DNA from: an uncultured Fibrobacterota bacterium
Lineage (GTDB): Bacteria; Fibrobacterota; Chitinivibrionia; Chitinivibrionales; FEN-1185
Assembly: GCA_963753345.1 (NCBI GenBank)
Contig: CAVWBU010000032.1
Location: forward strand, 32,001 to 96,000
DNA: 64,000 nucleotides
Direction of reading: 5' to 3'
A model generated the notes under the pieces. That model saw only the letters and a program-made list of their open reading frames with translations, was not told where the DNA came from and ran no database searches. Made by a program: the position numbers and the translations under genes. Of this stretch, positions 7,373 to 63,326 are shown one piece after another (position 1 is the first letter of the stretch; each line of letters begins with the position of its first letter).

Positions 7373-7881
7373 TTGGGGGGGGAAGGCTCCCCCTCGCTCC
7401 GGCCCGGCATGCGCGCTCAAATTTCTGCTCGCTGATTATCGCATGCCGGTCCTCCGCTACCCCCTCGTGGGTGGCCCCCAAGGGAGTTGATTTGCAAGAA
7501 AGAAACATTTGCTGCGGGGGCGCCGAGAAAGAGCGTTGAAAAGTTGAAACGTAGAATTGTTGAATAGTCAAGGCCGGAAAACTGAAAAGCAAAAAAGCAA
7601 AGTGTCATTGCGAGCAAAGCGAAGCAATCACCCGAAGCAATAGTCAGCGGTAGTTGTTTTGAGGATTCGGATTGGCGCGAAAAGAAGTAATTGACTGAAG
7701 AGAATTCCGTTGCCGCGCGTTAGGTGGACCGGAGGGTGAGCCAGAGCGAATTGCCGACTGATCCCTAGCCGAAGGCGGTAGGGACAGGCGGCAACGAGGC
7801 CGGAGGCCGACGACCCTTGGAAGCACCCGAAGGGGTGGACCGAAGGGAGACCGGCCCGAGCGTAGCGAGGGAAACGCCCAA
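7373..7881 (+). repeat. Bipartite structured repeat, A+B composite
   Basis: A: GGGGGAAG..CCCCCT..CCGCTACCCCCTCGTGGGTGGCCCCC..TTGCAAGAAAG..GCTGCGGGGGC; B: TTGAC..TGCCGCGCGTTAGG..GGGAAACGCCCAA. Confidence 0.9.
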
Positions 7882-7936
7882 TTTCTTGCTATCTATGGGA
7901 AAATTATTATAACACAAAAAGGGGGGAGAGGCAAGC

Positions 7937-10736
7937 ATGACTCACAAAACAATTCTTTCAGCTGCCATTTGTATTGCGCTGGCGGCCTCATTTTGTCGGG
8001 CCGAAACCTATTCGCCCGATCCGTCGATCCGGCTCAAGATCAACCTGGGCGCGACGCCGTGGAAGTTCAACATCGGCGACCCCGTGGGAGCCTCCACCGT
8101 CGCTTTCAGCGACGCGGCGTGGACCACCGTTGGCATCCCGTACACATGGGCCGACATGCAGTCGTTTCTCAACATGGCCTCGGGCGGGCCGGGCAACGGC
8201 ATAGGCGCAATCGTCTGGTACCGGAAGCACTTCACCCTTGACAATGCGTATTCCTCGCGGAAGATTTTCGTCGAATTCGAGGGCGCGCATATCGGCGCGC
8301 AGGTGTGGATCAACGGCACCATGATAAAAACCAACAGCGCATTCAATCCGCAGGCCACCCACGTGATCGGGTTTGAACCCTTTATCGTGGACATCACGCC
8401 CAATGCGGTTCTCGGGGGAGGGGACAACGTTCTGGCGGTCAAGGTGAGCAACGTCGAGGGCTTCTACACGTACCCCCATTTTTCGTGCGAATTCAAGTAC
8501 GGCATGGGTGACGGCGGTCTGTTCAGGCCGGTGTGGATGCACGTCACCAATAAAGTTTATGTGCCGAACAACGTGTACTCGGTTGTCAACAACTGGGGCA
8601 CGTATGTCGCGGCAATCACCGCCACCGACGCCTCGGCGGACGTGAAGATTCTTACGCATGTCCAGAACGCAAGCGGCGCCGCTGCCACCGTCACCCTCAC
8701 CACAAAGATCGTGGAGGCCGCCACCGGCATCGTGGCATGGAGCGGGGACATGACGCAGGCGATAAGCGCGGACAGCAGTTTTGTTTTCGACCAGACCGCC
8801 ACCGTGCTCAATCCCAAGCTGTGGTATCCCGCCGCCAGTCCCTGGGGCAAGCCCAACATGTACCGGGTTTACCATATTGTCAAGATCGGCGCAACGACGG
8901 TTGACATTTTTGAAAGCCCGCTCGGTATACGGGTGATAACCTGGAACAACGATTGCCCTGTTATCAACGGCCACCCGCATTACGCGCCGGGCGGCGCCTC
9001 GCGGTACGATTATCCCGCGCTCGGCTCGGCCGTGCCCGAAGAAGTGCAATGGCGCGACGCGAAACTGATGGCCGACTGCGGGGGCAGCCTCTGGAGGCCG
9101 GGACATGCCACAAGCAGTTCCGAATTCGTGGCAGCGTGCGATGCGTACGGCGTCATGCTGATGCAGCCCAGCGGCGACATCGAGGGAAGTTTCATGACAT
9201 CCCAGATAGCGCCGTGGACCGCAAACTACAATGCCGGACTCAAGTACGAAACCCACAGGGACATGCTCATACGGGACAGGAACAATCCTTCGATACTTGC
9301 ATGGGAAGTGAGCAACGGCCCCATCGATATCGATTTTGCAAAAGCAATTCGTTCACAGTTGGACAGCGTATGGGACCCGGTTCACACCCGCGCCAGCTCC
9401 GATCGGGGCTACTGGCCCGACGTTCCCAATGTGCAAGCCGGCGCCACCAGCATCATTTCCTGCTCGGGCGCAGGCTGCGCCACGCCGTTCCATCAACAAT
9501 ATCCCACCATACCTACCTGGGGCGCCGAGGAATGGGGCGCAGGCACGGACTTCAGGTTCGACTACGATGGCGAGCTCGCCTTCGCGAACGGGTATGTGAA
9601 TAACTGGAGAACCATGACGAAGGCTCATGTCTTCGGCTATACCCAGTGGTACATGGCCGAAACGCCGGGAGAAAACGGCATCGGCCGGTCGTTCGGCTGC
9701 GCAATGATGGACTGGAACCGCCTTCCCAAAATGCTGTACAAGATCTTTCAGGCGTGCTGGAACAATTATTCGGTGAAGCCTGTTGTCAACCTTGCGAACC
9801 ACTGGAACCGCGGGGGCGCGGTGACGGTAAACGCGTTTTCCAACTGTCCGAGCGTCCGGCTCAGCATCAACGGCGTCAGCCAGGGGACCCAAACGCCGTA
9901 TCCGGACACGGTGGGCACCGCGCTGCTTCCCGGCCAGTGCCAGTGGAACGTGAACTGGGCATCGGGAACGCTCCTGGCCGAGGGACTTGACGCCAGCGGA
10001 ACCGTGGTCTGTTCCGACCAGAAGAAAACCGCGGGCGCGCCCGCGTGCGTCGCGCTGACCGTTTTGCCGCCGATTGTCCGGCCCGACAACGGCGACACGT
10101 TCAAAATCTACGCCAACGGTTCCGATGCGGCCATTTTCCAGGCCACCATTGTCGACGCTCAGGGAAACTGGTGCCCAACGTCAAGCCCCAACGTTACCTT
10201 TGCCGCTTACCACTCCCACGACCGGCAATTACCGGGGCGGCGCGGACAACAATATTTACAACGGGACGCCTTCCCATTCGCCCGGCGATTACGAATTGGC
10301 GGCTGAGGGAGGCATGTGCAAGGTGGCGGTGCGCTCGACATTCACCCCGGGAACGGTCACCGTGACCGCCAATTCACCCGGGTTGTGCCAGGGCACCGCT
10401 TCGGTCACCACGGTTGCGATGCCGCCGATTCCATCGGTTTCGGTGCAGGTCCCCGTGTGCGGTCAGAAGGTCTGTGCCGCTGCAACGGTGCAGATGCGGA
10501 TGATAGGCCGCACGCTGCGGTATTTCCTCAACGTGCCCGCCATGGTGACGTTCGACATTCTCGACGCGGGCGGCAGGGTGGTTCGTCATGTCGCGCGTTT
10601 CAGGCAGACGGAAGGCTGGCACCCGCTGATCCTTGGTGATGGGACGAGCGGCGCCGGCGGCGACGGTGTTTACTTTGTACGGTGCAGTGTGGATCAGGGG
10701 AGCAGTTTTGTGAAGAGGGTGATAGTGTTGAAATAA
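7937..10736 (+). CDS. Secreted GH2 protein (copy 2), frameshift ~10205-10225
   Basis: Colinear paralog of 4578-7361; ORF 7937-10306 continues in ORF 10074-10736 at GNYRGGADNN. Confidence 0.87.
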
Positions 10737-10754
10737 TAAGCGAGAATAGGATTT

Positions 10755-11289
10755 ATGGGGGGATGTTTCCCCCTCGCTGCGGCCTCCTCGGCCTTCGGCC
10801 TGCGGTGTCCTCCGCTACCCCCTCGTGGGTAGCCCCCAAGGGAGTTGATTTGCAAGAAAGAAACATCTGCTGCGGGGGCACCGAGAAAGAGAGTTGAATA
10901 GTTGAAAAGCCAAGAATCCAAGAGCAAAAAACGAAAAAAGAACCATCATTCTTGTTTTTTCAGCCACATAGTGGCGCGATATTCTTAGCCCGGGGCAACG
11001 CCCCGGGAATGTAAAGATAACAACGTCATTTCCCCTCTCCACTTGTGGAGAGGGGTGGCCGCGAAAGCGGCCGGGGTGAGGCGACGGTTCTGAGCATTCC
11101 GATTTGCGCAAGGAAGTAAATCGACTGAATAGAATTCTGTTGCCGCGCGCTAGGCAGGACCGGAGTGGTCCCGCCGTGGCGGGATTGCCGGCCGACCCCT
11201 CGCCGAAGGCGACTCGGGGCGGATCGGCAACGAGGCGAACAGCCGAGCCCGGAGGGAGGGCCGCCGCCGCGAAGCGGCGGGGCGCACAA
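10755..11289 (+). repeat. Bipartite structured repeat, A+B composite with two REP-like units in the spacer
   Basis: A 10755-10892, B 11121-11289; same motifs as 7373-7881. Confidence 0.9.
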
Positions 11290-11345
11290 GTTCTTGCTAT
11301 TTAAGAATTGAAAAATATTATAACACAAAAAGGGGGAAGGCAAGC

Positions 11346-14138
11346 ATGATTCACAAAACAATTGTTTCAGCGGCGATAATTCTTGCTCTGGCGGCCTCAT
11401 TCTGCCGCGCAGAAACCTACGTCCCGGATCCTTCTATCCGGCTCAAGATCAACCTGGGCGCCACGCCATGGAAGTTCACGAAAGGCGACCCGATAAGCGC
11501 GCAAACCGTGGCCTACAGCGACGCGGCATGGCGAACCGTGGGAATTCCCTACACCTGGGACGATTCCTGCTCGTTTCTCAACATGGACGCTGGAGGCCCG
11601 GACGCCAACCTGAGCACCGTCGCCTGGTACCGGAAGCATTTTACGCTTGACAATTCGTATTCATCGCACAAGATCTTCGTCGAATTCGAGGGCGCGCATC
11701 AGGCCGCCGCCGTCTACATCAACGGCACCTTTATCAAAAACAACGACACCCTCAATCCGAATGCCACGCATGTCGTCGGCTTTATCCCTTTTATCGTGGA
11801 CCTCACGCCGTACGTCCAGTTCGGCGGCCCCGACAACGTTCTTGCGGTGAAGGTGAGCAATGCGGGCGGCGGCTTTTACCAGGACCCCGGTTTTGCCGAG
11901 GCCTACAAGTACGGCATGGGCGACGGCGGGTTGTTCAGGCCCGTGTGGATGCATGTGACGAACAAGGTGTATGTTCCCGTCAACGTATACTCGGTTGTCA
12001 ACAACTGGGGAACCTACGTGGGGATCGTCTCGGCCACCGACGCTTCGGCGACGCTCCGCATCCTCACGCACGTGCAGAACGAGAGCGGCGGCGCTCAAAC
12101 CGTCACCCTCACCACCAAGGTGGTCGATTCGGCAAACGTGGTCGTGCTCAGCATGGACGCGACCCAGGCCATTCCCGCCGACAGCAGCTTTGTATTCGAT
12201 CAGACCGGCGATGTCGCCAGCCCGCACCTGTGGTATCCGGCCAACAGCCCATGGGGCAAGCCGTACATGTACAAGGTATACCATATTGTCAAGCTCGGCG
12301 GCGCGACCGTCGACGTTTTCAGGAGTCCGCTGGGCATTCGCGTCATCACCTGGAACAGCGACTTCCCGATTATCAACGGGCATCCGCATTACCTGTGGGG
12401 CGGCGCGTCGCGGTACGATTATCCCGCACTGGGCACCGCCGTGCCCGAAGAAGTGCAATGGCGCGACGCCAAGCTCATGGCCGACTGCGGCGGCAACCTG
12501 TGGCGGCCCGGACACGCCACGGCCAGCCCGGAATTCACGGCCGCCTGCGACGCGTACGGCGTCATGATCGTTCAGCCGAGCGGCGACATCGAAGGAAATT
12601 TCCAGACCGTCTATATCGCCAGTCCCACCACCAAGGTGCCTCTCAAAAAGGAATTGCACAGGGACATGATAATCCGCGACCGGAACAATCCCTCGATTCT
12701 GGCCTGGGAAGTGAGCAACGGCCCCATCGACTTTGATCTTGAGAAATACATACGGATCAACATCGACAGCGTGTGGGACCCCGTTCATACCCGCGCGATG
12801 TCCGACCGTGGGTATTGGCCGGACATTCCGGCGTTTACTGCGGGTATTGCGAGCACCATTTCCTGCTCGGCCACGGGCTGCGAGATTCCGTTCCACCAGC
12901 AGTATCCCGCCATTCCCTCCTGGGGCGCCGAGTCGTGGAGCGGCAACAACAAGGGATTCAGGTTTGATTACGACAACGAGCTCACCATCGCGAGTCTCTA
13001 TATCCAGAACTGGAAGCTCAGCAAGAATGCAAAGTGCTTCGGCCTTGTCCAATGGTATATGGCCGAAACGCCCGGCGAAAGCGGCATCGGCAGATCGTTC
13101 GGGACCGCGATGATGGATTGGAACCGCATTCCCAAAATGATGTACAAGATTTATCAGGCATGCTGGACCTACTACGCGGTGAAACCGGTTGTAAACCTCG
13201 CCTACCACTGGAATCGCGGCGGGGCCGTGACGGTGAACGCGTTTTCCAACTGTCCGAGCGTGCGGCTCAGGATAAACGGCGCGGACCAGGGCACAAGGGT
13301 TCCCTACCCGGACACGGGCACCGGCACCGCGCTCATGCCCACCCAATGCCAGTGGAACGTTACCTTCGCGGCCGGAGTGCTCCGGGCGGAAGGACTTGAC
13401 GCAGGCGGGAACGTGGTGTGCACCGATTCGGAAATAACCGCCGGCAACGCGGACCACATCCAGCTCACCGTCCTGCCGCCCATCGTGAGGCCCGACGATG
13501 GCACGACGTTCCAGATCCAGGCCAACGGCACCGATGCCGCCTTGATTCTCGCCAAGATTGTTGACGCCCAGAACAATTGGATTCCCACGGCAAGCAACAA
13601 CGTCACGTTCGCGGTGAGCGGCCCCGGGTACTACTGCGGCGGCGCGGACAACAACACCTCGGGCGGCGGAGCATACCATCATGCGCCGTTCGACCCCGAG
13701 CTCACCGCCGAAGGCGGCATGTGCAAGATCGCGGTGCGGTCGACGTTTACGCCGGGAACGGTGGGCGTCACTGCCACGTCCGGCGGGCTTTCGGGCACTG
13801 CCTCGTTCACCACGGTTGCGATGCCGCCGATTCCGTCGGTGGGCGTGATAAGCCCGGTGCACCATCAGGAGGTCTATGCCGCCGCGACGGTGCAGATGCG
13901 GATGATCGGCCGCACCCTGCGGTATTTCCTCAATGTGCCCGCAACGGTGTCGTTCGACATTCTCGACGCAGGCGGCAGGGTGGTAAAACATGTTGATCAT
14001 TTCAAGCAGGTTGAAGGGTGGCATCCGCTGGTTCTTGGCGACGGATTGACGGGTGCGAACGCTAATGGCGTTTACTTTGTGCGCTGCAGCGTGGATCAGG
14101 GGGGCAGTTTTGTGAAGAGGGTAATTGTCATTAAGTAA
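11346..14138 (+). CDS. Secreted GH2 protein (copy 3)
   Basis: Colinear paralog, intact 930 aa; leader shared with copy 2 (TTATAACACAAAAAGGGGG..GGCAAGCATG). Confidence 0.88.
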   Translation: MIHKTIVSAAIILALAASFCRAETYVPDPSIRLKINLGATPWKFTKGDPISAQTVAYSDAAWRTVGIPYTWDDSCSFLNMDAGGPDANLSTVAWYRKHFTLDNSYSSHKIFVEFEGAHQAAAVYINGTFIKNNDTLNPNATHVVGFIPFIVDLTPYVQFGGPDNVLAVKVSNAGGGFYQDPGFAEAYKYGMGDGGLFRPVWMHVTNKVYVPVNVYSVVNNWGTYVGIVSATDASATLRILTHVQNESGGAQTVTLTTKVVDSANVVVLSMDATQAIPADSSFVFDQTGDVASPHLWYPANSPWGKPYMYKVYHIVKLGGATVDVFRSPLGIRVITWNSDFPIINGHPHYLWGGASRYDYPALGTAVPEEVQWRDAKLMADCGGNLWRPGHATASPEFTAACDAYGVMIVQPSGDIEGNFQTVYIASPTTKVPLKKELHRDMIIRDRNNPSILAWEVSNGPIDFDLEKYIRINIDSVWDPVHTRAMSDRGYWPDIPAFTAGIASTISCSATGCEIPFHQQYPAIPSWGAESWSGNNKGFRFDYDNELTIASLYIQNWKLSKNAKCFGLVQWYMAETPGESGIGRSFGTAMMDWNRIPKMMYKIYQACWTYYAVKPVVNLAYHWNRGGAVTVNAFSNCPSVRLRINGADQGTRVPYPDTGTGTALMPTQCQWNVTFAAGVLRAEGLDAGGNVVCTDSEITAGNADHIQLTVLPPIVRPDDGTTFQIQANGTDAALILAKIVDAQNNWIPTASNNVTFAVSGPGYYCGGADNNTSGGGAYHHAPFDPELTAEGGMCKIAVRSTFTPGTVGVTATSGGLSGTASFTTVAMPPIPSVGVISPVHHQEVYAAATVQMRMIGRTLRYFLNVPATVSFDILDAGGRVVKHVDHFKQVEGWHPLVLGDGLTGANANGVYFVRCSVDQGGSFVKRVIVIK

Positions 14139-14154
14139 TTGACAAGAGCCTCTA

Positions 14155-14610
14155 GGAGGGGGAAGTCTCCCCCTCGCTTCAGACCGGCGCGCGATTCTTG
14201 AGTCCCTTGAGACCGTCAATCGCGCGCCGTTCTTTCGCTACCCCCTCCTGGGTGGCCGCCTTGACAAAGCAGATGCTGGAACATGTATTGCTGCGGCGGC
14301 ACCCACGAGCGATAGTTGAAAAGAAAATGCGTTGAAGAGTTGAAACGTTGAATAGTTGAACAATCAAAGAAGAAGCCATCACTGATTTATTGCGGATATC
14401 GAATGGCGCGGGACGAGGTAATTGACAGAATAGATCTCCTCTGCCGCGCGTTAGGGGCGACTGGAGGCCGCGCTGGAGCGCGGTGCTGCCTGACCACGGC
14501 CCACAGGGCCATCGTGGCAGGCAGCCCGAGGCCAAAGGCCGAGACCGGAAGGAGAACCGCCCGTACGTAAAGCCGCGGAATTCCGCGGCTTTACGTACGG
14601 GAACGCCCAG
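14155..14610 (+). repeat. Bipartite structured repeat, A+B composite (CCGCC/GGCGG stem variant)
   Basis: A 14155-14310, B 14422-14610; between convergent genes. Confidence 0.9.
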
Positions 14611-14633
14611 ATTTCTTTCCAAAGGGAACTTTA

Positions 14634-16969: not shown

Positions 16970-17008
16970 TTGGTGGGAGCACCGCTTCGCGTTTCCCCCT
17001 CGCGCCAG
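16970..17008 (+). repeat. Truncated module A head (A' variant)
   Basis: TTGGTGGGAGCACCGCTTCGCGTTTCCCCCTCGC, nearly the same as 41580-41613. Confidence 0.65.
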
Positions 17009-17036
17009 TTGTCTACACTCTATCAAATACAAAGAA

Positions 17037-17182
17037 TGGGCGTTCCCCTCGCCTTTGCTCGGGTCGGTCTCCCTCCGGGCTCGGCTATTCGCCTCGTTGC
17101 CGGACCGCCCCGATGGCCTTCGGCCGGGGTCGACCGGCAATTCGCTTTGACTCACCCTACGGTCCACCTAACGCGTGGGCAG
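17037..17182 (-). repeat. Module B, minus strand
   Basis: TGGGCGTTCCCC..GGTCCACCTAACGCG is the reverse complement of module B; close to copy 25255-25397. Confidence 0.85.
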
Positions 17183-17351
17183 AGGTTGAGTGCCACATCC
17201 TTTTCTAGGGCTGCCGCATCGTTTCGTCTTGACAATCCGCAATCGACAATGGGAAGGTGGGGCGCCCAGCTTTGTCTTCGTCTATCAAAAACCTTTTATT
17301 GGTGAGAGTTCTACATCCCACCTCCTTTCCGCACGGTTCTATATTTAGACT

Positions 17352-18545
17352 ATGACATCGAACAATCCCGCATCAATCAAACAAGCGTCCCTAAATACTG
17401 CGCGTTGTCTTGCTCTTGCCGGACTATTGATAAGTGCGACACTTTTTTCCTGCGGAAACCCGGCAAGCACCGGAGCCGCCGCCAAGCCGCCTGCTCCGCT
17501 CAGCATCAGGGCAGTCGGCTCGTCCCTGAGCGGCATTTGCGTGACGTGGGTGAGGGTGCTCGACGTCACATCGTACAATGTCTACAGGGGCAGCACCAGC
17601 GACACCGGGGCATCCGTGTTTGTAAAGAAGGTGGCGGCGGACACCTTTTTCGACACAGGCCTGGTCGCCGGAGCATACTATTACTATGAAGTAAGCTGCA
17701 TCAACAGCCTTGGCGAATCGCCGAAGTCGTCGGCCGTCGGCTCGACCACGGGGTTTCCCGGAAACGTGGCGGCGAAGGGGGTTTCCGCATCCGGCATTTC
17801 GGTTACATGGAATCCGGTTGCGGGCGCGGCGTTGTACAATGCGTACCGAAGCGAGTCGGATACGGGCGCGTTTCTCGCCGTGGGGCTGGTTGCAAACGAC
17901 ACCTTTGTCGATACGGGCCTCAGCGCCGGCAAGGTTTACTACTACGAGGTGAGCGCGACCGGCGGTTCGCAGGAGTCGCCGTTGTCGGGGGCGGTGTGGG
18001 GAATCACGATTGCCGCGGCGCCTTTCGGTTTGAAAATTGATTCTGTTTTTGCGAAGACGGCAAGAATCGTATGGCAGGCGGACACGGGCGCGTCCTCGTA
18101 CACGGTGTACAGGAGGCCGAATGACACCGCCGCTTTTGCCGCGGTGGGCGTCAGCGCTTCGGACACGTTTACCGACACAGGCCTTTCCCCGGCGACCCGA
18201 TACTCATACGCGGTCTCGGCGGTGAACCTGTCGGGGGAATCGCAGAAATCCGCGCCTGCAGGACTGCTCACCATTCCCGCCGCGCCGCAGATCGCTGTCG
18301 ATTCGGCCCTGTCGAGTTCGAGCGTGCTTGTACTTTGGAACGCGGTGACGGGTGCGACGGCTTACAGAGTCTACAGGAGAGATTCCACCACGACCGCGTT
18401 CGCGCTCGCGGGCGCAGCCGCATCAGATACGTTCTTTGTCGATACAGGTCTTTCAACCGGTATGAAATATTTTCACGAGGTGACTGCGCTTGACAGTTCG
18501 GGAGAATCCGCGCCGAGCGCGGTTGACAGCGTGACTACGCCATAG
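17352..18545 (+). CDS. Fibronectin type III repeat lipoprotein
   Basis: Lipobox LFSC; four repeats of W..V.GA..Y.VYR..F.DTGL..G..Y.Y.V.A..GES. Confidence 0.85.
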   Translation: MTSNNPASIKQASLNTARCLALAGLLISATLFSCGNPASTGAAAKPPAPLSIRAVGSSLSGICVTWVRVLDVTSYNVYRGSTSDTGASVFVKKVAADTFFDTGLVAGAYYYYEVSCINSLGESPKSSAVGSTTGFPGNVAAKGVSASGISVTWNPVAGAALYNAYRSESDTGAFLAVGLVANDTFVDTGLSAGKVYYYEVSATGGSQESPLSGAVWGITIAAAPFGLKIDSVFAKTARIVWQADTGASSYTVYRRPNDTAAFAAVGVSASDTFTDTGLSPATRYSYAVSAVNLSGESQKSAPAGLLTIPAAPQIAVDSALSSSSVLVLWNAVTGATAYRVYRRDSTTTAFALAGAAASDTFFVDTGLSTGMKYFHEVTALDSSGESAPSAVDSVTTP

Positions 18546-18810
18546 GCGGCGGGGGCTTCACCCCCGCGCCCCGACCTACTTTCTTTCTGCAGCGAAAGAA
18601 AGTAGGCAAAGAACGCCGCGCCTGCAGCGCCGCCTGATCCTTCGGCCGTCGGGCCGCTCGTGAACTCGCCCGGCATGAAGCATCTGCCAAGAACCTTGCG
18701 CTTGTACATGGAAACCCATTCGTCAATACCAAACCTGCCGGGCTCAGACAACACGAGCAGCCAAATCCTCCGGCCTCAGGGTCGGCGCTGATGGCGAAAA
18801 AACAAAAACG
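18546..18810 (+). repeat. Module C: different palindromic element in the A position
   Basis: GGGGG-CTTCA-CCCCC hairpin; perfect 13-bp IR CCTACTTTCTTTC/GAAAGAAAGTAGG (18575-18606); AACTCGCCCGGCA..TGCCGGGCTCAGACA. Confidence 0.6.
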
Positions 18811-18817
18811 GCAATGC

Positions 18818-18963
18818 TCTTCTGCCCAGCGCCAGGGCGGACGGCAGAGTGCGCTGGAGCGCAGGGCTGCCTGACCGCGCCGACAGGCATCGCGGCAGGC
18901 AGCACCGAGGCCTTGGCCGAGCTCGAACGGAGGCCCGCCGTCGCGAAGCGGCGGGGCGCCCAC
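18818..18963 (+). repeat. Module B, diverged variant
   Basis: CTTCTGCC..GCGCCAGG..GCGCTGGAGCGC..GCTGCCTGACC..GGCAGGCAGC..GAGGCC..GGGGCGCCCA; compare 14440-14610. Confidence 0.75.
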
Positions 18964-19005
18964 GCTACTCTTATATTGTAAAGCACACTTTTATCAAAGG
19001 TCTCT

Positions 19006-20127: not shown

Positions 20128-20210
20128 TGGTGGATAAAATAAATTCGGTGCTTGTAGTTGCATTGGAAAAGAAGAGGCGGAAGGTCGTGCCTAAAAGAAA
20201 AAATAAGTTT

Positions 20211-20609
20211 AGTGGGGGAAGTATCCCCCTGCCTGCGGCCGCCTCCGGCGTCCTCCGGCACCCCCTCCTGGGTGCACCCCTGGAAAGGGTAGTTGCAAAA
20301 CCATACTCTGCTGCGGGGGCACCCATGGAGAGTGGTTGTCAGCTTGAGGAGTTGAGAAGAAAAAGCGTTGAACAAGTAGAAAATGCGAAGAACAGTCTGA
20401 GCGTTATCATTGCGAAGCGGATTCTGGCGGGCGAAGAAGTATAATTGACAGAATAAATATCTGTTTGCCGCGCGTTAGGTGGACTGGAGGCCGCGCTGGA
20501 GCGGAGTGCCGCCCGACACCCGGCCCGCAGGGCATAGGGCAGGCGGCAACGAGGCGAAGGCCGAGACCGGAAGGGAGACCGACCCTCGCGAAGCGAGGGG
20601 AACGCCCAG
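20211..20609 (+). repeat. Bipartite structured repeat, A+B composite
   Basis: A 20211-20333, B 20445-20609; between divergent genes. Confidence 0.9.
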
Positions 20610-20667
20610 CGTATCTTATGTTGTCAGGGATATTGAAACTTGTACTATTGTCCCGATCCCTGTGAAT

Positions 20668-24530: not shown

Positions 24531-24885
24531 TTTGGTGGGGGAAGTATCCCCCTGCCTGCGGCCCTGCGGTCCTCCGGCACCCCCTTCCTGGGCGGCCCCC
24601 AAGGAAGTTGATTTGCGAGAAAGTTGCTTGGGTTGGGGGGCACCCACGGAGAGGTGTTGAAAAGTACAAAGAAGAAGCTTTGATCATTTTCTTGATGATT
24701 CAAGATGGCGGGAAAAATGATCTTGACCGAATAGATTTCTTCTGCCGCGCGTTAGGTGGACCGTAGGGTGAGCTAGAGCGAATTGTCACTTCGTTCCCCA
24801 AGGTATGGAAATAGCGCTTCGCGCTTCATTATTGTGTCTCTTGCCTTGTGCCGGCCGACGACCCTTGGAAGCACCCGGCGGGGTG
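24531..24885 (+). repeat. A+B composite, B truncated at 3' end
   Basis: A starts at the base after the stop codon; B 24723-24885 stops at GCACCCGGCGGGGTG. Confidence 0.85.
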
Positions 24886-25005
24886 ATGGAGAGTCCGGAG
24901 GTGTGGGGAGAAGCGGGGATGATGAGAAGAATTCCAAGAGGGTTGGTGAGATATCTGGATGAGAGGGCGGAGAAAATGTTGGGAATTCCAAAAAGTAAAT
25001 ATTGA
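24886..25005 (+). pseudogene. Diverged duplicate of the last 40 codons of the SPL-like gene
   Basis: Ungapped match to 24411-24530, 16 mismatches in 120 nt by manual count. Confidence 0.92.
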
Positions 25006-25397
25006 TTTGGCGGGGGAGGTTTCCCCCTCACTCCGGCCCGGCACGCGCGACATTTTTTCCATGACTTCCCGCGCGCCGGTTCTCCGCTACCCCCTCCTGG
25101 GTGGCCCCCAAGGAAGTGGATTTGCAAGAAAGAACCGTCGGCTGCGGGGGCACCGAAAGAAATAGTTGAAGCGTTGAATGGTTGAAAAGCATAGACTGAT
25201 TCATGGCGTATGCGGATTGGCGCGGGAAGAAGCAATTGACTGATAAGATTTCTTCTGCCGCGCGTTAGGTGGACCGTAGGGTGAGCTAGAGCGAATTGCC
25301 GGCCGACCCGGCCGACAGGCATAGGGCGGACCGGCAACGAGGCGAACAGCCGAGCCCGAAGGGAGACCGGCCCGAGCGAAGCGAGGGAAACGCCCAA
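25006..25397 (+). repeat. Bipartite structured repeat, A+B composite
   Basis: A 25006-25162, B 25236-25397. Confidence 0.9.
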
Positions 25398-25442
25398 ATC
25401 TTATATTCATATTAATTACCATCAACCATTTTTATAAAGGCT

Positions 25443-26418
25443 ATGAATACTACAAACCCTCTTGCCATTGGATCAATTGCTCTCGGCGAAATTCCCCGCG
25501 TGGTCGCGGTCATCGACGAATTTCTCGACATGCACCGCATCGCTGCGCTTGCAAAGACCGGCGCGGACATCCTGGAAATGCGGTTCGACCTGCTGGGCGA
25601 CGACATCCCGTCGCTATGTGTATATGTTGACAAAATCAAGAAGACCACAAATTTCCCCTGCATCGGCACCATCCGCGAGACGGACGGCAACCGGCACAAG
25701 CGGATGGACATGTTCAAGTCGGTGATCCCGTTCGTGGACGCAGTCGACATAGAGATCGACGCATCGATCGCGCAGCAGGTGATCGCTCATGCGGCGGGGA
25801 AAACCGTGATCGTGTCGGAGCACGATTTCGAGAAGACGCCCGACATCGCGCATCTGCACGCCATTGCCGACAGGGCGCACGAGCCTCGGCGCCCACATTG
25901 TAAAGATCGCGGCAATGGCGCACAGCCGTCAAGATGTGGCGCGGCTGCTCGCGTTCGCGTCCGAATGCGCATGGCCGGTGGTGGTGATCGCCATGGGCGA
26001 TTTCGGCACCATCTCGCGCGTCCTGGCGCCGGTGTTCGGGTCGCTGTTCACGTACGGGTTTTTAAGATCGGCGGTCGCGCCCGGCCAGATTCCGGTTGGT
26101 AAATTGGTCGAAGAGCTGCGATTATATTATCCTCATATCAATAGTAAATCTAATCAGTTTTCAAATTCTGGTGGGGGCACCTCCTTGGCATCGGTTTCCC
26201 CCGGGCTCCGGCTTCCTCGCCTTCGCTTGCGGTGTCCTGCGCCTATCGCCCTTCCAGTTGGGCCGGCGCAACCGTCCGCGGGGCGGCAACGCTTGCGCGC
26301 TCGCGCGGCGTCACCCGTTCACGCTTCGCCCCTGCGCAAGAAATGCGCCTTCGCGCAATGTAATCAGTGCATTCGTCACTCGCAAATGCAACCATCGGTC
26401 GTGACAACAGACGATTGA
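25443..26418 (+). CDS. aroD: Type I 3-dehydroquinate dehydratase (frameshift ~25880; homology ends ~26135)
   Basis: DILEMRFD, DIEI, IVSEHDFEKTP, IVKIAAM, IAMG..G..SR, FTYG..APGQI. Confidence 0.85.
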
Positions 26419-26627
26419 CTTATCGAAGATCTAAATTGCCGTTTTCTGCGTTAGGCAGGACTGGAAGTCCCGCTATAGCGGGATGCCGCCTGACCACGGC
26501 CCGCAGGGCCATCGTGGCAGGCGGCCCGAGGCCGAAGGCCGACGACCCTTGGAAGCACCCGAAGGGGTGGACCGGAAGGAGGGCCGACCCGACCCCGAGC
26601 TGTGTCGAGGGGGAGGGGAACGCCCAA
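26168..26627 (+). repeat. A'+B composite
   Basis: A' variant shares GGGGGCACC..TTTCCCCC..TGCGGTGTCCT..GCGCTCGCGCGGCGTC with 41580; B 26415-26627. Confidence 0.8.
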
Positions 26628-26643
26628 ATCATTTATCGGGATG

Positions 26644-35137: not shown

Positions 35138-35294
<157 letters not shown>

Positions 35295-35304
35295 TGCACT
35301 CGCC

Positions 35305-37000: not shown

Positions 37001-37069
37001 CTTATTTTTCTTTGTCCAGTTTTCGGGTATTGGCTTTTCAACTATTCAATGCTTCAACATTTCAACTGT

Positions 37070-37224
37070 TCTCCGTGGGTGCCGCCACAACGATGCACGG
37101 CCTTGCAGCTGTTTTGTCAAGGCGGCTACCCAGGAGGGGGTAGCGGAGGACCGGTCGCGTTTCTCGATTGGTGGATTGTCAAGTAACGCGACCGGGCCGG
37201 AGCGAGGGGGAGCCCTCCCCCCTT
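37070..37224 (-). repeat. Module A, minus strand (CCGCC/GGCGG variant)
   Basis: Reverse complement of A; begins ~23 nt after the stop of the TonB-dependent receptor gene. Confidence 0.88.
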
Positions 37225-37247
37225 AAATAAGTCTCTACTATTTGTAA

Positions 37248-39461: not shown

Positions 39462-39623
39462 GCTGAGCACCTGTCCAGGAAACCGGACTATGGTCAAAGC
39501 AACGGCGAAAGAGCGACAACTAGAAATATAAGAGCAAACGGGGTTTTTGGATCAGCGGTGGCGAAGAAAGTGTTTTCTGCCAGAAACCACTTAATACAAA
39601 TTCAAATACAAATGGAAGATATC

Positions 39624-40021
39624 TTGGAGGGGGAAGTGTCCCCGTGGCCCCAAGCCTCCTCAGCCTACGGCCTGCGGGGTCTTGGAGCACACCCCCTCGT
39701 GGGTAGCCCCCTAGAAAGCTGGTTCGCTGGAAAGAGGCTTCAGCTGCGGGGGCACCGAGAAAAAGAGTTGAAAGTTGACAGTTGGCAGTTGACGGCGGGA
39801 CTTGGGAGAGAGAACCCGCGTTCGTTCCAAGGATTTCAGCTGGCGCAAAGATATACTTGACCGAATAGATTTCTTCTGCCGCGCGCCAGGCAGGACTGGA
39901 AGGTGCGCTGGAGCGCATTGCCGCTTGACCACGGCCCGAAGGGCACTCGTGGCAAGCGGCAACGAGGCCGAAGGCCGAGCCTGGAAGGAGGGCCGCCGCT
40001 GCGAAGCAGCGGGGCGCCCAA
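39624..40021 (+). repeat. Bipartite structured repeat, A+B composite
   Basis: A 39624-39767, heptamer array 39767-39795, B 39857-40021; extra GGGGAACGCCCAA at ~40039-40051. Confidence 0.9.
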
Positions 40022-40071
40022 ATCTTCTCCTATCTATTGGGGAACGCCCAACAAATTAATTTATTAATAGA

Positions 40072-41551: not shown

Positions 41552-41579
41552 TCCAAATGATGAAAAAAGATTAATTCTT

Positions 41580-42018
41580 TTGCTGGGGGCACCGCTACGC
41601 GTTTCCCCCTCGCTGCGGCCTCCTCGGCCTTCGGCCTGCGGTGTCCTCCGCTCCCCCCTCCAGCGAAGAGGCGCGCCTGGGGCGCTCGACCTGCGCTCGC
41701 GCGGCGTCGCCCCTTCGCAACGCAACCACATAGGTATGCCGCTTCGCGGCGATATTGTATTACGGTGCTATCACTTTTGTAACTTTCCGAATCTGATCAT
41801 TACTAGACATTCAATCAAGCGCCTGTCACCTGCGCGTGCGTTAGGCCGGACCGGAGGTCCCGCCATAGCGGGATGCCGCCCGGACCCGCCGCTACTGCGG
41901 CATAGGGCCGAGGCGGCCCGAGGCCGAAGGCCGACGACCCTTGGAAGCACCCGAAGGGGTGGACCGGAGGGAGGGCCGACCTGACCCAGAGCTTGTCGAG
42001 GGGGAGGGAAACGCCCAA
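41580..42018 (+). repeat. A'+B composite
   Basis: A' 41580-41720, B 41830-42018 ending 16 nt before the polA ATG. Confidence 0.85.
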
Positions 42019-42034
42019 CTTATATTAATATCTT

Positions 42035-44739: not shown

Positions 44740-44845
44740 AAGTTGAAGGTTGAAAGTTGAAGGTTGAAAGTGAGGGAGCGAAAAAGGAGAGCGTTCATCA
44801 ATAGTACTTGCTCCTGCTGTCAACTGTCAACCGTCAACTGTCAAC
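44740..44845. repeat. Convergent heptamer arrays
   Basis: (GTTGAAR)x4 after polA stop; (GTCAACY)x4 at 44819-44845 overlapping the stop of the opposite gene. Confidence 0.75.
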
Positions 44846-45816: not shown

Positions 45817-45992
45817 TTGGGCGTTCCCCTCCCCCTCGACAAGCTCGGGGTCGGGTCGGTCTCCCTTCGGGCTCGGCCATGCGGCCTCGTTGCCGGCTGC
45901 CCAAGGCCCTGCGGGCCGTGGTCGGCGGCAATGCGCTCTGGCGCACCCTTCGGTCCACCTAACGCGCGGCAAGAGAAGTTTCATCAGTCAAT
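45817..45992 (-). repeat. Module B, minus strand
   Basis: TTGGGCGTTCCCC..GGTCCACCTAACGCGCGGCA..CAGTCAAT. Confidence 0.88.
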
Positions 45993-46042
45993 ATAATTGC
46001 TCCCGCCATCATGAATTGTCAAGGAACAGAACAGGTCTTCTC

Positions 46043-46566: not shown

Positions 46567-46741
46567 AAGTATCAAATGAAAAGTGATGCACGGGCTTGGG
46601 TGTTCCAATTCCTAACATTAATCCGGCTCTGCTGGCGATCTCTCGTGGTGCCCCCCCCCGCAGCCGGCGTATCGCTTGCAATGACATATTGACTTGTATT
46701 GATCACGATGTCGGCTTGATTCCCGGGCCCGGCCAGCTATC

Positions 46742-46874
46742 GCTCGTGGGTGCCGCCGCAGCGAAGTATGGTCTTGCAGCTATTTTGTCAAGGCGGCCAC
46801 CCAGGAGGGGGTAGCGGAGGACAGCCGCAGGCCGAAGGCCGAGGAGGCCGTAGCGAGGGGGAGACTTCCCCCAC
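46742..46874 (-). repeat. Module A, minus strand (CCGCC/GGCGG variant)
   Basis: Starts ~8 nt after lysC stop; a second A 3'-half remnant at ~46640-46685. Confidence 0.88.
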
Positions 46875-46882
46875 TTGAAAAT

Positions 46883-49590: not shown

Positions 49591-49607
49591 TATAAATAAA
49601 ATAATTC

Positions 49608-49750
49608 TTGGTGGGGGAGGTATCCCCCTGGCCCCAAGCCTCCTCGTCCAGCGGGACTGCGGGGTCTTGGGGCACACCCCCTCGTGGGTAGCCCCCAAGG
49701 GAGTTGGTTGGCAAGAAAGAAACCTCGCTTGCGGGGGCACCGAGAAGGAT
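49608..49750 (+). repeat. Module A without a recognisable B
   Basis: TTGGTGGGGGAGGTATCCCCCT..CCCCCTCGTGGGTAGCCCCCAAGGGAGTTG..TGCGGGGGCACCGAGAAG; followed by (AATCTAC)-like heptamers ~49790-49820. Confidence 0.88.
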
Positions 49751-49829
49751 TGTTGATTGATGATTGCGAAATGCGGATTGAGGATGAATCCGCAATCTAC
49801 ATTCTACAATCTACAATTCTAGGGGCCTT

Positions 49830-54007: not shown

Positions 54008-54089
54008 GGAGAATAACGAAATTGCGTTGAAGGAGCGTGCGGCCCCTAACTGGAGTTTTGACGCGAGCCTCGTAGAATTCCGCGGGTTT

Positions 54090-61891: not shown

Positions 61892-62748
61892 ACGGTTTTC
61901 CTCTTGTCGTCGAGCTCGGCGATGCGGGAGGCGGTTTCGCTCAGCGGGAAAAGCTGGAAATTGAACTGATACACCTGGCTGCTTCCCTCGTCACGGTTGA
62001 CAATAGAGATGACCCGTTCCTTGAACGCGGCGAGCTCGGCGAGCAGCACTTCGTAGCAAGGCCGGGAAATGCCCATGGTGATGCCCGAGATGTTCCGCGC
62101 TTCGGGCGGGAGCGATTCGTTCGAATCGCGGGCCAAAAGAAGCATGGTGCTGTTGAACGAGCGGCGCGCAAGCGACAGAATGTCGGAGCCGCTCGTGATC
62201 GCCGCATTCGTCTGTTTGTAGGTTCCCTTCTTCTGCTTCTTCACCAGATTGAGCCGCAGCAAAAGCTGCACGGACTGCCTGGCGTCCCTCGGCGCAATCG
62301 CGGGCCGAACGCATTTCGCAAGCAGTTCCCAGTCGTCGCAGAAGTCGTACAGGCATATCAGCTCGCGGATCGCGCTGTTGTGCCATTTCTCAAAATATAC
62401 GTATTGGTCCGCGGTGAGGCGATGCTCGTTCACATAATCAATCATCGACAGCATTACGCTGTAGTGTTCCTGCTTCTCAAAGGCCGTCTTCGACTGATTG
62501 AACTGCACGAGGTGCCGGAAGAACGAGGCCTCCTTTTTGTTCAGGTTGAGCGCGCCGATGAATTTTTCAATGGCCTGCAGGGTGAGATTGCGCTCGCCCT
62601 CGATGACCTGCTTGAGAAAGACAGGGGACTTTATGTTCGCCTTGTTGGAAAAATACCGGTAGGAAAAGAATTGCGTGGTCTTCTTTTTTTCGTTATAGTA
62701 GTCCGCAAGGAATTTTCTGTAGTCGATGTATTTGAAGATCTTTTCCAT
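61888..62748 (-). CDS. TIGR02147/DUF4423 family protein
   Basis: IF.Y.DYR.FL.DYY..FSYR.F, G.RNL, W..SAIREL, R.IS..T, VYQ.NFQLFPL. Confidence 0.88.
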   Translation of the reverse strand: MEKIFKYIDYRKFLADYYNEKKKTTQFFSYRYFSNKANIKSPVFLKQVIEGERNLTLQAIEKFIGALNLNKKEASFFRHLVQFNQSKTAFEKQEHYSVMLSMIDYVNEHRLTADQYVYFEKWHNSAIRELICLYDFCDDWELLAKCVRPAIAPRDARQSVQLLLRLNLVKKQKKGTYKQTNAAITSGSDILSLARRSFNSTMLLLARDSNESLPPEARNISGITMGISRPCYEVLLAELAAFKERVISIVNRDEGSSQVYQFNFQLFPLSETASRIAELDDKRKTV

Positions 62749-62894
62749 ATATATGAATTTACCACAAGAGAACGGCCGCGAACACCTTAAAATGGAGGAA
62801 AAAAGAAGTATATGTATTCACGTTGTATACATGGGGGGTTGTAAGATTTTGATATAAAGTGAATTGTGAGATGGAAGGACAAGTAACTAAAATA

Positions 62895-63326
62895 TTTGGT
62901 GGGGGAAGTTTCCCCCTGGGGTACAACCAACCGGCGAATGGAATATGCAATTTCTATACAGGCCGGTTGTTTGCACCCACACCCCCTCGTGGGTAGCCCC
63001 CAAGTAAGTTGCTTTGCAAGAAAGAAACTTTGGTTGCGGGGGCACCGAGAAAGAGAGTTGGAAAGCTGACGGTTGACAGTTGACAGCAGGACAATGAGAA
63101 GTCCTGACGGATTGTCTAATGATTCCGGCTGGCGCAAGAATATAACTTGACTGAAGAGATTACCGCTGCCGCGCGTTAGGCGCGACTGGAGGTCCCGCCG
63201 AAGCGGGATGCCGCCCGGACCCGGCCCTGTGGGCCATAGGGCCGAGGCGGCCCGGGGCCGAAGGCTGAGACGCGGAAGGAGAGCCGCCCCGCGCCTTTGC
63301 TCACGGAAGGCGCGGGGAACGCCCAA
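62895..63326 (+). repeat. Bipartite structured repeat, A+B composite
   Basis: A 62895-63057, heptamers 63057-63087, B 63147-63326. Confidence 0.9.

Follow-up and report, generated by a model that had tools for sequence, protein, structure and literature searches.

What occupies so many of the spacers between genes in this DNA, and how does it spread? A first-pass annotation of the 64-kb stretch analyzed here (the window) described two sequence modules, A and B, recurring as ten composites, four solo A copies, and four solo B copies, and proposed an element mobilized in trans, a landing pad for cargo, or a multicopy structured RNA. We called A and B copies with nhmmer profiles, both in the window and throughout the genome under study (G000; 4.5 Mb, 94% complete, about 500 units). 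The sister species G001 served as the comparison genome for orthologous sites, and four further genomes of the same genus (G002, G003, G004, and G005) were also compared. Genes were called with a home-made caller (79.5% coding), and distances and orientation counts given below are therefore approximate.

Modules A and B recur across the window

Profile searches returned 12 A and 13 B hits in the window. Both families exist at nearly all of the places first annotated, far above chance. All ten composites have a B hit and nine have an A hit, the one at 26168 lacking the latter. Three of the four solo A copies (37035, 46734, and 49607) were recovered, and 16970 has no profile hit. Likewise, three of the four solo B copies (17034, 18791, and 45817) were recovered, and a B at 4294 is unsupported, with no nhmmer hit, no covariance-model hit, and a poor alignment. 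The copies and related features are as follows.

7372..7884, plus strand: full composite (A 7372-7566, B 7666-7884; nhmmer), with a covariance-model hit at 7712-7881; begins 10 nt past the stop of GH2 paralogue 1
About 7536-7570, plus strand: GTTGAnn array of the preceding composite (sequence)
10752..11291, plus strand: full composite after GH2 paralogue 2 (A 10752-10918, B 11097-11291; nhmmer, covariance model), with an additional small repeat module (module family 5) in the A-B spacer
14152..14613, plus strand: full composite with convergent genes on either side (nhmmer, covariance model); A starts 13 nt past a stop and the B end lies 20 nt from the opposing stop; kept at the orthologous G001 site
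16970..17005, plus strand: A-type 5' hairpin stub of about 36 nt (by eye, G001 alignment); the matching G001 site holds a full A-to-B composite
17034..17185, minus strand: B (nhmmer, covariance model), within a region that is a plus-strand composite in G001; past it, near 17285, lies a remnant of a plus-strand B 3' end
18550..18962, plus strand: A'-type hairpin directly past a stop, then B 18791-18962 (nhmmer for B); the orthologous G001 spacer is about 80 nt and element-free, and contig X10 is also shorter here
20208..20609, plus strand: full composite in a divergent spacer (nhmmer, covariance model), kept in G001
24531..24790, plus strand: A and the 5' half of B (truncated, 24701-24790; nhmmer), the first copy of a tandem duplication that includes the last ~50 nt of the upstream gene; contig X8 runs from 24410 directly to 24886 without it
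25006..25399, plus strand: full composite, second duplication copy (nhmmer, covariance model); G001 has one composite only at the duplication site, 24531..25399
26168..26629, plus strand: variant A' and B 26404-26629 (nhmmer for B, covariance model); A' has the same 5' hairpin as A and a different 3' half; the B end is 14 nt from a convergent stop
37035..37227, minus strand: solo A (nhmmer), 20 nt past the stop of a TonB-dependent receptor gene
39623..40023, plus strand: full composite (nhmmer, covariance model); the orthologous G001 composite has the opposite orientation
41579..42021, plus strand: A' and B between permease and polA genes (nhmmer); the A hit, 41579-41664, spans just the first 82 profile positions (5' part), and B ends 13 nt upstream of the polA start; site flipped in G001, filled in G005, and empty in G002, G003, and G004
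44740..44826, no strand: post-polA spacer without A or B (G001 comparison, L042:4244 versus C32:76705-76884), with a GTTGAAG/GTTGAAA array in the polA direction and an GTTGACAG array in the convergent gene's direction; G001 has a composite here
45817..46014, minus strand: B (nhmmer), 720 nt downstream of the same-strand A at 46734-46876
46734..46876, minus strand: A (nhmmer), 6 nt past the stop of the gene ending at 46883
49607..49763, plus strand: solo A (nhmmer); the upstream neighbor is a minus-strand gene start
62895..63326, plus strand: full composite in a divergent spacer (nhmmer, covariance model)

The units share one order genome-wide

The whole-genome profile search identified 296 A and 421 B copies. 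A same-strand B lies at most 600 nt downstream of 215 of the 296 A copies (median gap, 45 nt) and upstream of just 2, in agreement with the annotated A-before-B order and showing that the two modules are tightly linked genome-wide. Half of the B copies have no recognized A. On one strand, the full unit reads A, a GTTGAnn tandem array, and B. All 123 arrays within or next to a unit share its strand, and 41 of 54 free arrays come after a gene of the same orientation, with a median distance of 12 nt from its stop. Nearly all copies are extragenic, with 96% of A and 92% of B hits overlapping called genes by less than 10%. These data describe one ordered, modular, and abundant family, bigger and more complex than REP units, as first proposed; the GTTGAnn array, and the finding that a stop codon can adjoin the B end as well as the A end, had not been part of that description. 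Units are found on many contigs, in both orientations and beside housekeeping genes such as polA, unlike an integron attC/cassette array, in which an integrase gene accompanies a single co-oriented array with attC directly past each cassette ORF.

Module B is a large covarying fold

Module A comprises an invariant G5-N6-C5 hairpin at its start, which is the sole invariant small palindrome, and then a palindromic hairpin that is hypervariable and a bulged one of about 60 nt. Only 1 of 17 predicted pairs covaries in a 14-copy alignment (genome-wide, this pair is CG in 148 copies and GC in 47). The conservation of A is mostly at the sequence level.

Module B is a multi-helix domain of 145 to 200 nt, with two stacked helices closing it and a T-rich tail after it. 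Our model, built on 78 distinct sequences, has 41 pairs in 10 helices. Pairing is maintained in 87.3% of cells, versus 75.1% after shuffling (0 of 500 shuffles reach the observed value) and 34 to 47% with slid partners, and 31 of the 41 pairs change on both sides. Compensatory change beyond controls, as looked for in any structured noncoding RNA, is thus strong in B and nearly lacking in A. Among 225 base pairs compared in 14 orthologous copy pairs from G000 and G001, 30 had changed on both sides and 10 on one side while remaining paired, and 11 were broken (slid controls, 0 to 5 compensated and 17 to 25 broken); part of this compensation may be replacement by another copy, because the B copies differ by 18 to 25% and their flanking genes by about 10%.

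Wobble pairs are asymmetric between strands (G.U 206 versus A.C 76), largely owing to two columns without which the counts are 94 and 76, and folding z-scores give the named strand no more than a modest advantage. Junction strands hardly vary, two of the helices contain tandem G.A pairs, and the P2/P6 junction has two competing alternative pairings. At its 3' end, B has a hairpin, GGAACGCCCAA, and then a T-rich tract (42 to 79% T at +4 to +17) that starts 4 to 10 nt past the last helix. A consensus scan of a 19-kb stretch detected no enrichment of hairpin-plus-T terminators (23 found, 23.1 expected).

No Rfam family reached its gathering score in the window, and relaxing the search to E values up to 10 across 24500-26700 returned nothing relevant. 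Other genera within the order Chitinivibrionales have low-copy B-like elements, whose helices are kept with different letters, and no B turned up in the families sampled from the rest of Fibrobacterota. B looks like a large folded domain new to the RNA catalogue that we searched (Rfam).

Either end of a unit can adjoin a stop codon

The A end lies past a co-oriented stop, at a median of 21 nt, in 132 of 206 composites and 58 of 78 solo A copies, and the seven stops named in the first-pass annotation are 0 to 27 nt from A, as it had stated. The B end faces a convergent stop, at a median of 22 to 30 nt, in 88 composites and 118 solo B copies. Either end of the unit can therefore adjoin a stop codon about 20 nt away. 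The share of spacers that contain a unit is 25.5% for convergent, 15.3% for divergent, and 8.8% for tandem genes. Orientation relative to the upstream gene is about 64% consistent, both among composites (the 132 of 206 above) and among units in tandem spacers (118 of 182), which is weak for an element that needs to be read in one direction.

Two readings give B a role of its own. One takes B as a promoter and 5'-leader cassette, riboswitch-like, controlling the gene downstream. Several B copies in the window do end 13 to 54 nt before a start codon (7937, 11346, 25443, and 42035), and in two of six distant genomes examined (L062 and L065), as more loosely in a third (L061, 104 nt), a co-oriented gene has a B-like element upstream. 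However, the gene downstream of B is co-oriented in just 202 of 408 cases, with a convergent stop facing B in the other 206, so that the reported tendency of B to end 15 to 80 nt before a start does not hold generally. B is most frequent where genes converge, its neighbors are functionally unrelated, and promoter-like sites lie downstream of it, at 20621 and 20668. The ~64% consistency likewise implies that B is not a leader for the next gene; we rejected this reading on orientation and consider it very improbable. In the other, B, with or without the array, is a free-standing multicopy gene, equipped with its own promoter and terminator, whose small RNA product acts in trans or binds a protein. 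The elaborate fold kept across the order with its invariant junction strands, the T-rich tail, the B copies that have no recognized A, and a TTGAC...TAGATT block conserved upstream of B in G000 and G001 are in its favor. Yet by eye this block lacks usable sigma-70 spacing, BLAST matches in G002, G004, and G005 start only at the B core, indicating that the block is not conserved there, and a trans-acting RNA would not usually have more than 400 diverged copies. We regard such a gene as unlikely.

Units turn over rapidly between relatives

At 27 orthologous sites that are filled in G001, G000 is the same at 15 and differs at 12 (4 without an element, 2 flipped composites, 4 of other composition, and 2 with an extra copy), so the sites are not invariant across relatives. 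The A segments after GH2 paralogues 1 and 2 are 95% identical, and the paralogue genes are 68 to 79% identical. In another sample, a near-identical contig lacks the tandem duplication of gene end and composite. These comparisons show that, from one sister species to the other, units are rapidly gained, lost, flipped, duplicated, and rebuilt.

No known mobilizing enzyme tracks the family

In three further readings, a dedicated enzyme moves or copies the units. Elements derived from IS200/IS605 have asymmetric hairpin ends and a structured RNA at the right end. If the units were non-autonomous elements of REP/RAYT-like or IS200/IS605-derived type, A would form the left end and B the right, both folding as single-stranded DNA, and a Y1 HUH transposase acting in trans would mobilize them. 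The units resemble such palindrome-associated elements in having two fixed, dissimilar, hairpin-rich ends in strict one-strand order, the right one structured. They also lack inverted ends and target duplications, as the first description had it: the longest word shared by the flanks of 139 composites averages 4.31 nt (4.16 for shuffled partners), inverted words in the flanks average 4.58 (4.58 shuffled), and the end logos share just TTGG...CCAA. Of the four other genomes of the genus that were searched, three (G002, G004, and G005) do encode a Y1 transposase. In contrast, Y1_Tnp (PF01797) has no match in G000 despite its ~500 units, in a search that was positive in 6 of 14 named control genomes, and TnpB (PF07282) has none in five genomes. 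In G002, the IS200-like copies have an identical core of 553 bp in common, and neither A nor B occurs within about 1.4 kb of them. The A end has no invariant 4- to 5-nt target motif (the letters before its hairpin are 48 to 69% conserved), the replication-strand bias of units (205 of 363, 0.56) is no greater than that of genes (0.56), and neither omega-RNA nor HEARO is matched in Rfam. This origin is doubtful.

MITEs such as Correia/NEMIS are defined by terminal inverted repeats and target-site duplications and can be co-transcribed with neighboring genes. The units are similarly small, noncoding, abundant, intergenic, and polymorphic between relatives (for a survey of MITEs, see PMC11602168), and other small repeats in this genome (family 2) have true inverted ends. 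A classical MITE moved by a DDE transposase nonetheless fails these defining tests, as the unit ends share at most the four letters above, the halves are mutually unrelated, and target duplications are lacking; we give it very little credence. In nine widely spaced A...B pairs examined by eye, the intervening ORFs looked mutually unrelated and none looked transposase-like, and they give no support to the proposed landing pad with cargo. A SINE-like retroelement, copied via RNA by a trans-acting reverse transcriptase and with the GTTGAnn array as a slippage tail, would account for the RNA-like fold, the strict one-strand order, the simple-repeat tract past A, and the lack of inverted ends. Against it, RVT_1 has no match in copy-rich G000 or in G005, which has more than 100 first-look candidate copies, no target duplications are seen, and no group II intron or retron is matched in Rfam, making this reading highly unlikely. 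The distribution of IS110 does not track the elements either. Mobilization in trans, as first suggested, thus finds no Y1/HUH transposase, TnpB, or reverse transcriptase in G000.

The units resemble known mosaic repeats

The A-array-B family belongs with REP/BIME, BOX, and TwoAYGGAY RNAs as kin in kind, with no sequence common to any of them. REP units are imperfect palindromes of about 35 nt with a conserved 5' tetranucleotide and are tied to a RAYT (Y1 HUH) gene; in enterobacteria and pseudomonads, REP/BIME have been proposed to act in mRNA 3'-end stability and in termination. Like these, our units are extragenic, number in the hundreds, are enriched behind genes and between convergent genes, form hairpins in a mosaic with other short motifs, and have no inverted ends or target duplications. 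Unlike them, they show no sequence similarity, no unit built as a ~35-nt palindrome, and no Y1 gene in G000, and their modules measure 150 to 200 nt, B being a branched multi-helix fold. BOX elements of Streptococcus pneumoniae, with about a hundred intergenic copies, consist of boxA, boxB repeated n times, and boxC, modules of 45 to 60 nt that form simple stem-loops. They share with our units a modular one-strand order, intergenic location, predicted stable RNA structure, and the lack of a transposase, but have no equivalent of the branched 145-nt B domain and belong to a different phylum.

A report on TwoAYGGAY RNAs of Pseudomonas describes tens to hundreds of copies, with a 5- to 6-mer array upstream and REP arrays downstream (bioRxiv 10.64898/2026.09.22.753630). 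TwoAYGGAY (RF01731) is likewise a multicopy, structured RNA-like intergenic element with an oriented degenerate short-repeat array upstream, associated with further repeat modules and varying widely in copy number between close relatives. The array unit here is longer (7 to 8 nt, GTTGAnn), the copy number is higher, and A has no counterpart. The RF01731 model, of two hairpins with AYGGAY loops, was in the library searched and gave no match; the fold of B differs, having no AYGGAY loops.

A modular noncoding repeat, probably transcribed

Taken together, we favor, at a probability of roughly 0.55, the reading that A-array-B units are a genus-wide family of modular noncoding mosaic repeats, new and REP/BIME-like or TwoAYGGAY-like. 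The units are probably transcribed into RNA downstream of genes: they would be read through from the upstream gene and so form part of the RNA downstream of or between genes. B would then act as a folded single strand, most likely RNA, and by analogy to REP/BIME may be a 3'-end structure that could stabilize, end, or insulate transcripts. Instead of cut-and-paste transposition, spread and turnover would involve copy-and-replace recombination between the numerous copies, or else a factor acting in trans.

A more far-reaching possibility, to which we assign a low probability, is that B is a new large structured RNA class with its own activity and that A-array-B is a protein-less mobile element; such a class would, just as tentatively, be confined to the order Chitinivibrionales among the genomes sampled. 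The near-invariant junctions, tandem G.A pairs, and competing P2/P6 pairings are compatible with this, as is the lack of any known mobilizing enzyme that tracks the family. If true, the activity of B might be self-cleavage or processing, or B might recruit a host recombinase or polymerase in the manner of a guide or bridge, and an RNA-propagated element without a protein of its own would account for units being flipped, replaced, or gained at gene ends with no transposase involved.

Two repeat modules and a short tandem array fill the intergenic space

The genome that contains the window (4.5 Mb in 55 contigs; ~58% G+C) has an intergenic space that is a mosaic of repeat modules. Repeats with at least 10 copies make up ~19% of the caller-defined non-coding bases (171 kb), or ~4% of the genome, and profile matches to modules A and B cover 13.6% of non-coding bases. 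The rest of the repeat load consists of A', a variant of A with the same 5' hairpin and a different 3' half, of small modules in the A-B spacer, and of at least one family whose ends are true inverted repeats. Gene calls (3593 genes, 79.5% coding) came from a home-made dicodon caller, and the position and orientation counts that depend on them are approximate. The genes of the window are unremarkable (three tandem GH2 paralogues, polA, a permease, radical-SAM enzymes, a TonB-dependent receptor, and LRR proteins), and a sequence-run search matched the window in 12 runs, all of them DNA metagenomes sampled from peat, soil, and freshwater sediment, with no RNA run among those listed.

Using profiles seeded from the window copies and then iterated across the genome, we found 296 copies of A and 421 of B. 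A same-strand B lies within 600 nt downstream of 215 of the 296 A copies (median gap, 45 nt) and upstream of only 2, so the fixed order of A before B on one strand, proposed in the first-pass annotation from the window, holds for the genome. This gives 215 composites, 81 solo A copies, and 211 solo B copies; part of the solo B set is really A'-B composites, since the A profile misses A' and many of these copies lie ~245 nt from the upstream stop codon. A repeat finder recovered both families, with 12 A and 13 B matches in the window. All ten composites named in the first-pass annotation contain a B match (with only the 5' half of B at 24701-24790), and nine contain an A match (at 41579, to the first 82 positions only); the composite at 26168 lacks one because it carries A', with its different 3' half. 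Three of the four solo A copies were recovered, the fourth (16970) being a 36-nt stub, as were three of the four solo B copies, with no support for that at 4294.

A third module, a tandem array of GTTGAnn units (e.g., GTTGAAAA, GTTGACAG, and GTTGAGAA), lies between A and B. The genome has 184 arrays of at least three units, 177 of them intergenic, and every array in or beside a unit is on the strand of that unit (123/123). Reversed sequence is not a valid control for these counts, as AGTTGA is identical when reversed. Free arrays also trail co-oriented genes (41 of 54; median, 12 nt past the stop). In the spacer after polA, where this genome lacks both A and B, the two convergent genes each have a separate array behind them that points in the direction of that gene, and other species of the genus show the order stop-array-B without A as well as A-array-B. 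Taken together, these three observations indicate that the array is a gene-end feature independent of A and B. Arrays behind stops point to a 3'-end signal, and none has been described for this group in the literature searched, which was covered by few queries.

Smaller repeats share the same spacers. A hairpin module (CCCTCTCCAC...GTGGAGAGGGGTGGCCGC...GCGGCC) occurs in at least 14 places, among them C19:9195-9288 and window 11030-11095, where it is inserted within an A-B spacer; the spacer seems to be a collector of such inserts. A separate family of ~134 nt (33 segments, e.g., C18:20545-20678 and C52:56925-57063) ends in true terminal inverted repeats (TAACGCCGCGCTAA ... TTAGCGCGTTGTTA) and looks MITE-like, with no relation to A or B. 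The window also has a tandem repeat inside a gene, in a stretch (34-36 kb) where G+C falls to 48% around long runs of adenine:

~34991, upstream limit of degenerate copies of the 144-nt unit
35142-35294, two runs of adenine (~34 and ~54 bases), briefly interrupted, just 5' of the repeat-protein gene
35296-36504, a 144-nt (48-residue) unit present 7-10 times in tandem, within an ORF of 517 residues that matches beta-propeller families (PQQ_2/BamB-like, DUF5122)

Adenine runs of this length are odd for bacteria; an assembly artefact or a slippage tract might account for them.

Module B has a conserved branched fold

Module B is closed by helix P1 (GCGUU/AACGC exchanged for GCGCC/GGCGC) stacked on P2, which enclose three or four inner arms (P3; P4 with P4a and P4b; P5; and an optional inserted hairpin). 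P6 is a highly variable hairpin. The junction strands are nearly invariant (GGACYGGAGG, CAACGAGG, and CCGAGMCCGGARGGAG), and the 3' tail reads CCAA followed by a T-rich tract. Across 78 distinct sequences from several species, 87.3% of cells are paired at 41 base pairs in 10 helices, compared with 75.1% in shuffled alignments (0 of 500 reach the observed value) and 34-47% when partners are slid; a model covering part of the same structure guided the alignment, which biases this value mildly in favour of that structure. Changes on both sides occur at 31 pairs, and the covariation score is 0.282, versus 0.113 for shuffled and at most 0.058 for slid controls. Tandem G.A pairs occupy 149 cells in P3 and P6, and by eye the P2/P6 junction has two competing pairings.

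Two near-invariant G.U pairs indicate the named strand as the folding strand, with a nearly even wobble balance once those two columns are removed (G.U 94 versus A.C 76). Four copies gave folding z-scores of -2.1, -3.8, -0.8, and -1.1 for the named strand, against 0.1, -3.6, -0.8, and -0.2 for its complement. No Rfam family matched the window at gathering thresholds, and relaxing the limit to an E value of 10 in 24500-26700 gave chance-level matches only; ARAGORN found no tRNA or tmRNA genes. A consensus scan of a 19-kb stretch for hairpin-plus-T terminators showed no enrichment (23 observed, 23.1 expected).

Module A begins with an A-rich and then T-rich lead-in and an invariant GGGGG-N6-CCCCC hairpin, continues with a hypervariable hairpin that is often a perfect palindrome, and then has ACCCCCUC...GGGU and a bulged hairpin (GGCCCCC...GGGGGC). 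Its structure is plausible and poorly tested, since the helices hardly vary: a single pair covaries (CG in 10 copies and GC in 4; genome-wide, 148 and 47). Covariation is strong in B and nearly absent in A.

Units lie mostly behind genes

Among 206 composites, 132 have the A end behind a co-oriented stop codon, as do 58 of 78 solo A copies (median, 21 nt), which bears out the placement described for the window; otherwise, a start codon lies 98-120 nt from the A end. At the B end there is a convergent stop in 88 composites (median, 30 nt) and in 118 of 202 solo B copies (median, 22 nt), or else a start at 90-115 nt. Of the convergent spacers, 126 of 494 contain a unit, against 75 of 490 divergent and 226 of 2554 tandem ones, and in the tandem class units point in the direction of the genes in 118 of 182 cases. 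Ending shortly before a start codon, as noted for B in the window, is no general rule, as the gene 3' of B is co-oriented in just 202 of 408 cases; B is therefore no leader or promoter of the downstream gene. A sequence block upstream of B was considered separately as a sigma-70, sigma-54, or Bacteroidetes-type promoter and rejected, because its spacing was unconvincing by eye and it is not conserved in three other species of the genus (G002, G004, and G005). Units show no excess replication-strand preference (0.56, as for genes), and the 11:3 plus-strand excess among window units is only local.

Units turn over between species and strains

We compared 27 orthologous spacers with the sister species (G001), in which all are filled and the flanks are ~80-95% identical. 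The state is equal in 15. Of the other 12, the element is absent from our genome in 4 (one retaining a 35-nt palindromic remnant of the B end), the entire composite is reversed in 2, the composition differs in 4, and our genome has an additional copy in 2. Sites are thus variable across relatives, one of the outcomes the first-pass annotation had looked for. The permease-polA spacer carries A' to B (+) in our genome, standard A and B (-) in the sister species, and a composite (+) in G005, and it is short and element-free in G002, G003, and G004. The permease itself (window 41551 versus loci L043-L046) has a ~70-residue C-terminal extension in G002-G005, which by eye looks like a heavy-metal-binding domain; the extension is absent from our genome and the sister species, where the gene stops right at the repeat unit.

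At 17 kb, a (-) B lies inside what is a (+) composite in the sister species, with a remnant of the old B end left behind, and at 24.5 kb the last ~50 nt of a gene are tandemly duplicated together with the composite. Contigs of four DNA runs break at the repeats and yielded two usable observations: the 24411-24885 duplication is missing from a contig of another sample that is otherwise nearly identical, and the region at 18322-19022 is shorter in a related strain. The window also carries three tandem GH2 glycosidase paralogues (4554-14138; DNA 68-79% identical) with a composite behind each, and part of the A behind paralogue 1 is 95% identical to the A behind paralogue 2, well above the identity of the genes. 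The middle paralogue lies in two overlapping frames (7937-10306 and 10074-10736) and may be frameshifted.

The divergence of orthologous B copies, 17.6% in paired columns and 24.7% in the remaining core columns, exceeds that of the flanking genes. Among 225 base pairs, pairing survived changes on both sides in 30 and a change on one side in 10, and 11 broke, versus 0-5 compensated and 17-25 broken in slid controls. This pattern reflects either in-place selection or replacement by other intact copies, and each means that the fold of B matters. Median nearest-neighbour identity is 85% for A and 89% for B, so the majority of copies are old, with no recent burst; the few copies at least 98% identical include those on a duplicated contig. 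That contig, C54, is a 100% identical copy of part of the window (~18.8-20.6 kb, contig C32) spanning a B copy, which points to contig redundancy or mixed strains in the assembly (contamination estimate, 4.8%).

B is distributed more widely than A

A covariance model found full-length B in four of the five other species of the genus and none in G003 (99% complete). Six further genera of the order have 1-9 weaker matches. Matches occur in 11 of 61 genomes of an order-level sample, ours included, and in 9 of 121 of a phylum-wide sample, all in families known from the order-level sample; families f10-f17 have none (0/63 genomes). The distant copies adjoin unrelated genes and keep P1, P3, P4, and P5 in other letters (e.g., P5 as CUCAC/GUGAG versus GGCC/GGCC). 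A has BLAST matches in the same four species of the genus only. The low copy number of B across the order and this restriction of A indicate that B is, judging from these sequences, old within the order and underwent amplification, along with A, in one genus. A 20-letter B motif, sought in a species-level genome collection, has 33 loci, 31 in three MAGs (Chitinivibrionales, Fibrobacteres or Fibrobacterota) and 2 in Alphaproteobacteria, which are probably chance matches.

What the modules may be

The first-pass annotation's observation of a dispersed bipartite element is confirmed, and its interpretation, an element mobilised in trans or a structured RNA, is supported in part. A classical MITE is rejected: as already noted for the window, target duplications are lacking (shared flank words, 4.31 versus 4.16 nt), and inverted ends are limited to TTGG...CCAA. 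Among candidate mobilisers, the four enzyme families searched, namely Y1 transposases (none in our genome), TnpB (none in five genomes), reverse transcriptases (RVT_1; none in our genome or G005), and IS110 (absent from the element-rich G004), do not track the elements in their occurrence, and the IS200-like copies of G002 are unrelated to A and B and flanked by neither. The idea of a landing pad with cargo gained no support either. In the nine widest same-strand A...B pairs examined, the ORFs are by eye mutually unrelated and none is transposase-like; we take some of them, by eye, to be a leucine-rich-repeat-like lipoprotein, a TsaE-like protein, and a ThyX-like protein. Separately, two ORFs in different frames at 46043-46610 (-), between A (46734-46876) and B (45817-46014), look by eye like an HD-domain protein split by a frameshift; its 98-residue piece matches no Pfam family. 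We consider it improbable that B is a new active RNA driving a protein-less mobile element.

The account with the best support is a scaled-up mosaic repeat of the REP/BIME kind, to which we assign a probability of roughly 0.55, a confidence limited by the weak orientation rule (~64%). As REP/BIME-like repeats, the modules would reside behind genes, tolerated or used there, and would probably be read through as RNA downstream of or between genes, with turnover via recombination among hundreds of copies or via an additional factor. Of the modules, B is the likeliest to carry a function of its own; by analogy with REP, it might form a structure at the 3' ends of transcripts that stabilises, terminates, or insulates them.

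The closest case described is the TwoAYGGAY RNA of Pseudomonas, which has an oriented short-repeat array upstream and REP arrays downstream, varies from tens to hundreds of copies, and has no known function (bioRxiv 10.64898/2026.09.22.753630). A-array-B resembles it in having an oriented array of short repeats upstream of a structured element. A distant-family genome (G033; locus L061, 1322-1621) has two B-like elements back to back on opposite strands within a divergent spacer, like the divergent doublets reported for TwoAYGGAY.

A full-text literature search returned nothing on such repeats in Chitinivibrionales or Fibrobacterota. REP, BIME, BOX, and Correia elements have shaped thinking on mRNA stability, termination, genome plasticity, and strain typing, and all, to our knowledge, come from a few well-studied phyla. 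In practice, such repeats fragment short-read assemblies (~570 contigs for the sister genome) and make ORF callers set gene starts too far upstream. With its 145-nt branched fold, strong covariation, and lack of a catalogue entry, B is a candidate for structural and biochemical study. The A-array-B family is a far larger and more elaborate counterpart of the known elements in an uncultured Fibrobacterota lineage of peat and soil, and its copy-rich genus set against copy-poor relatives provides a natural experiment on the amplification of structured elements.
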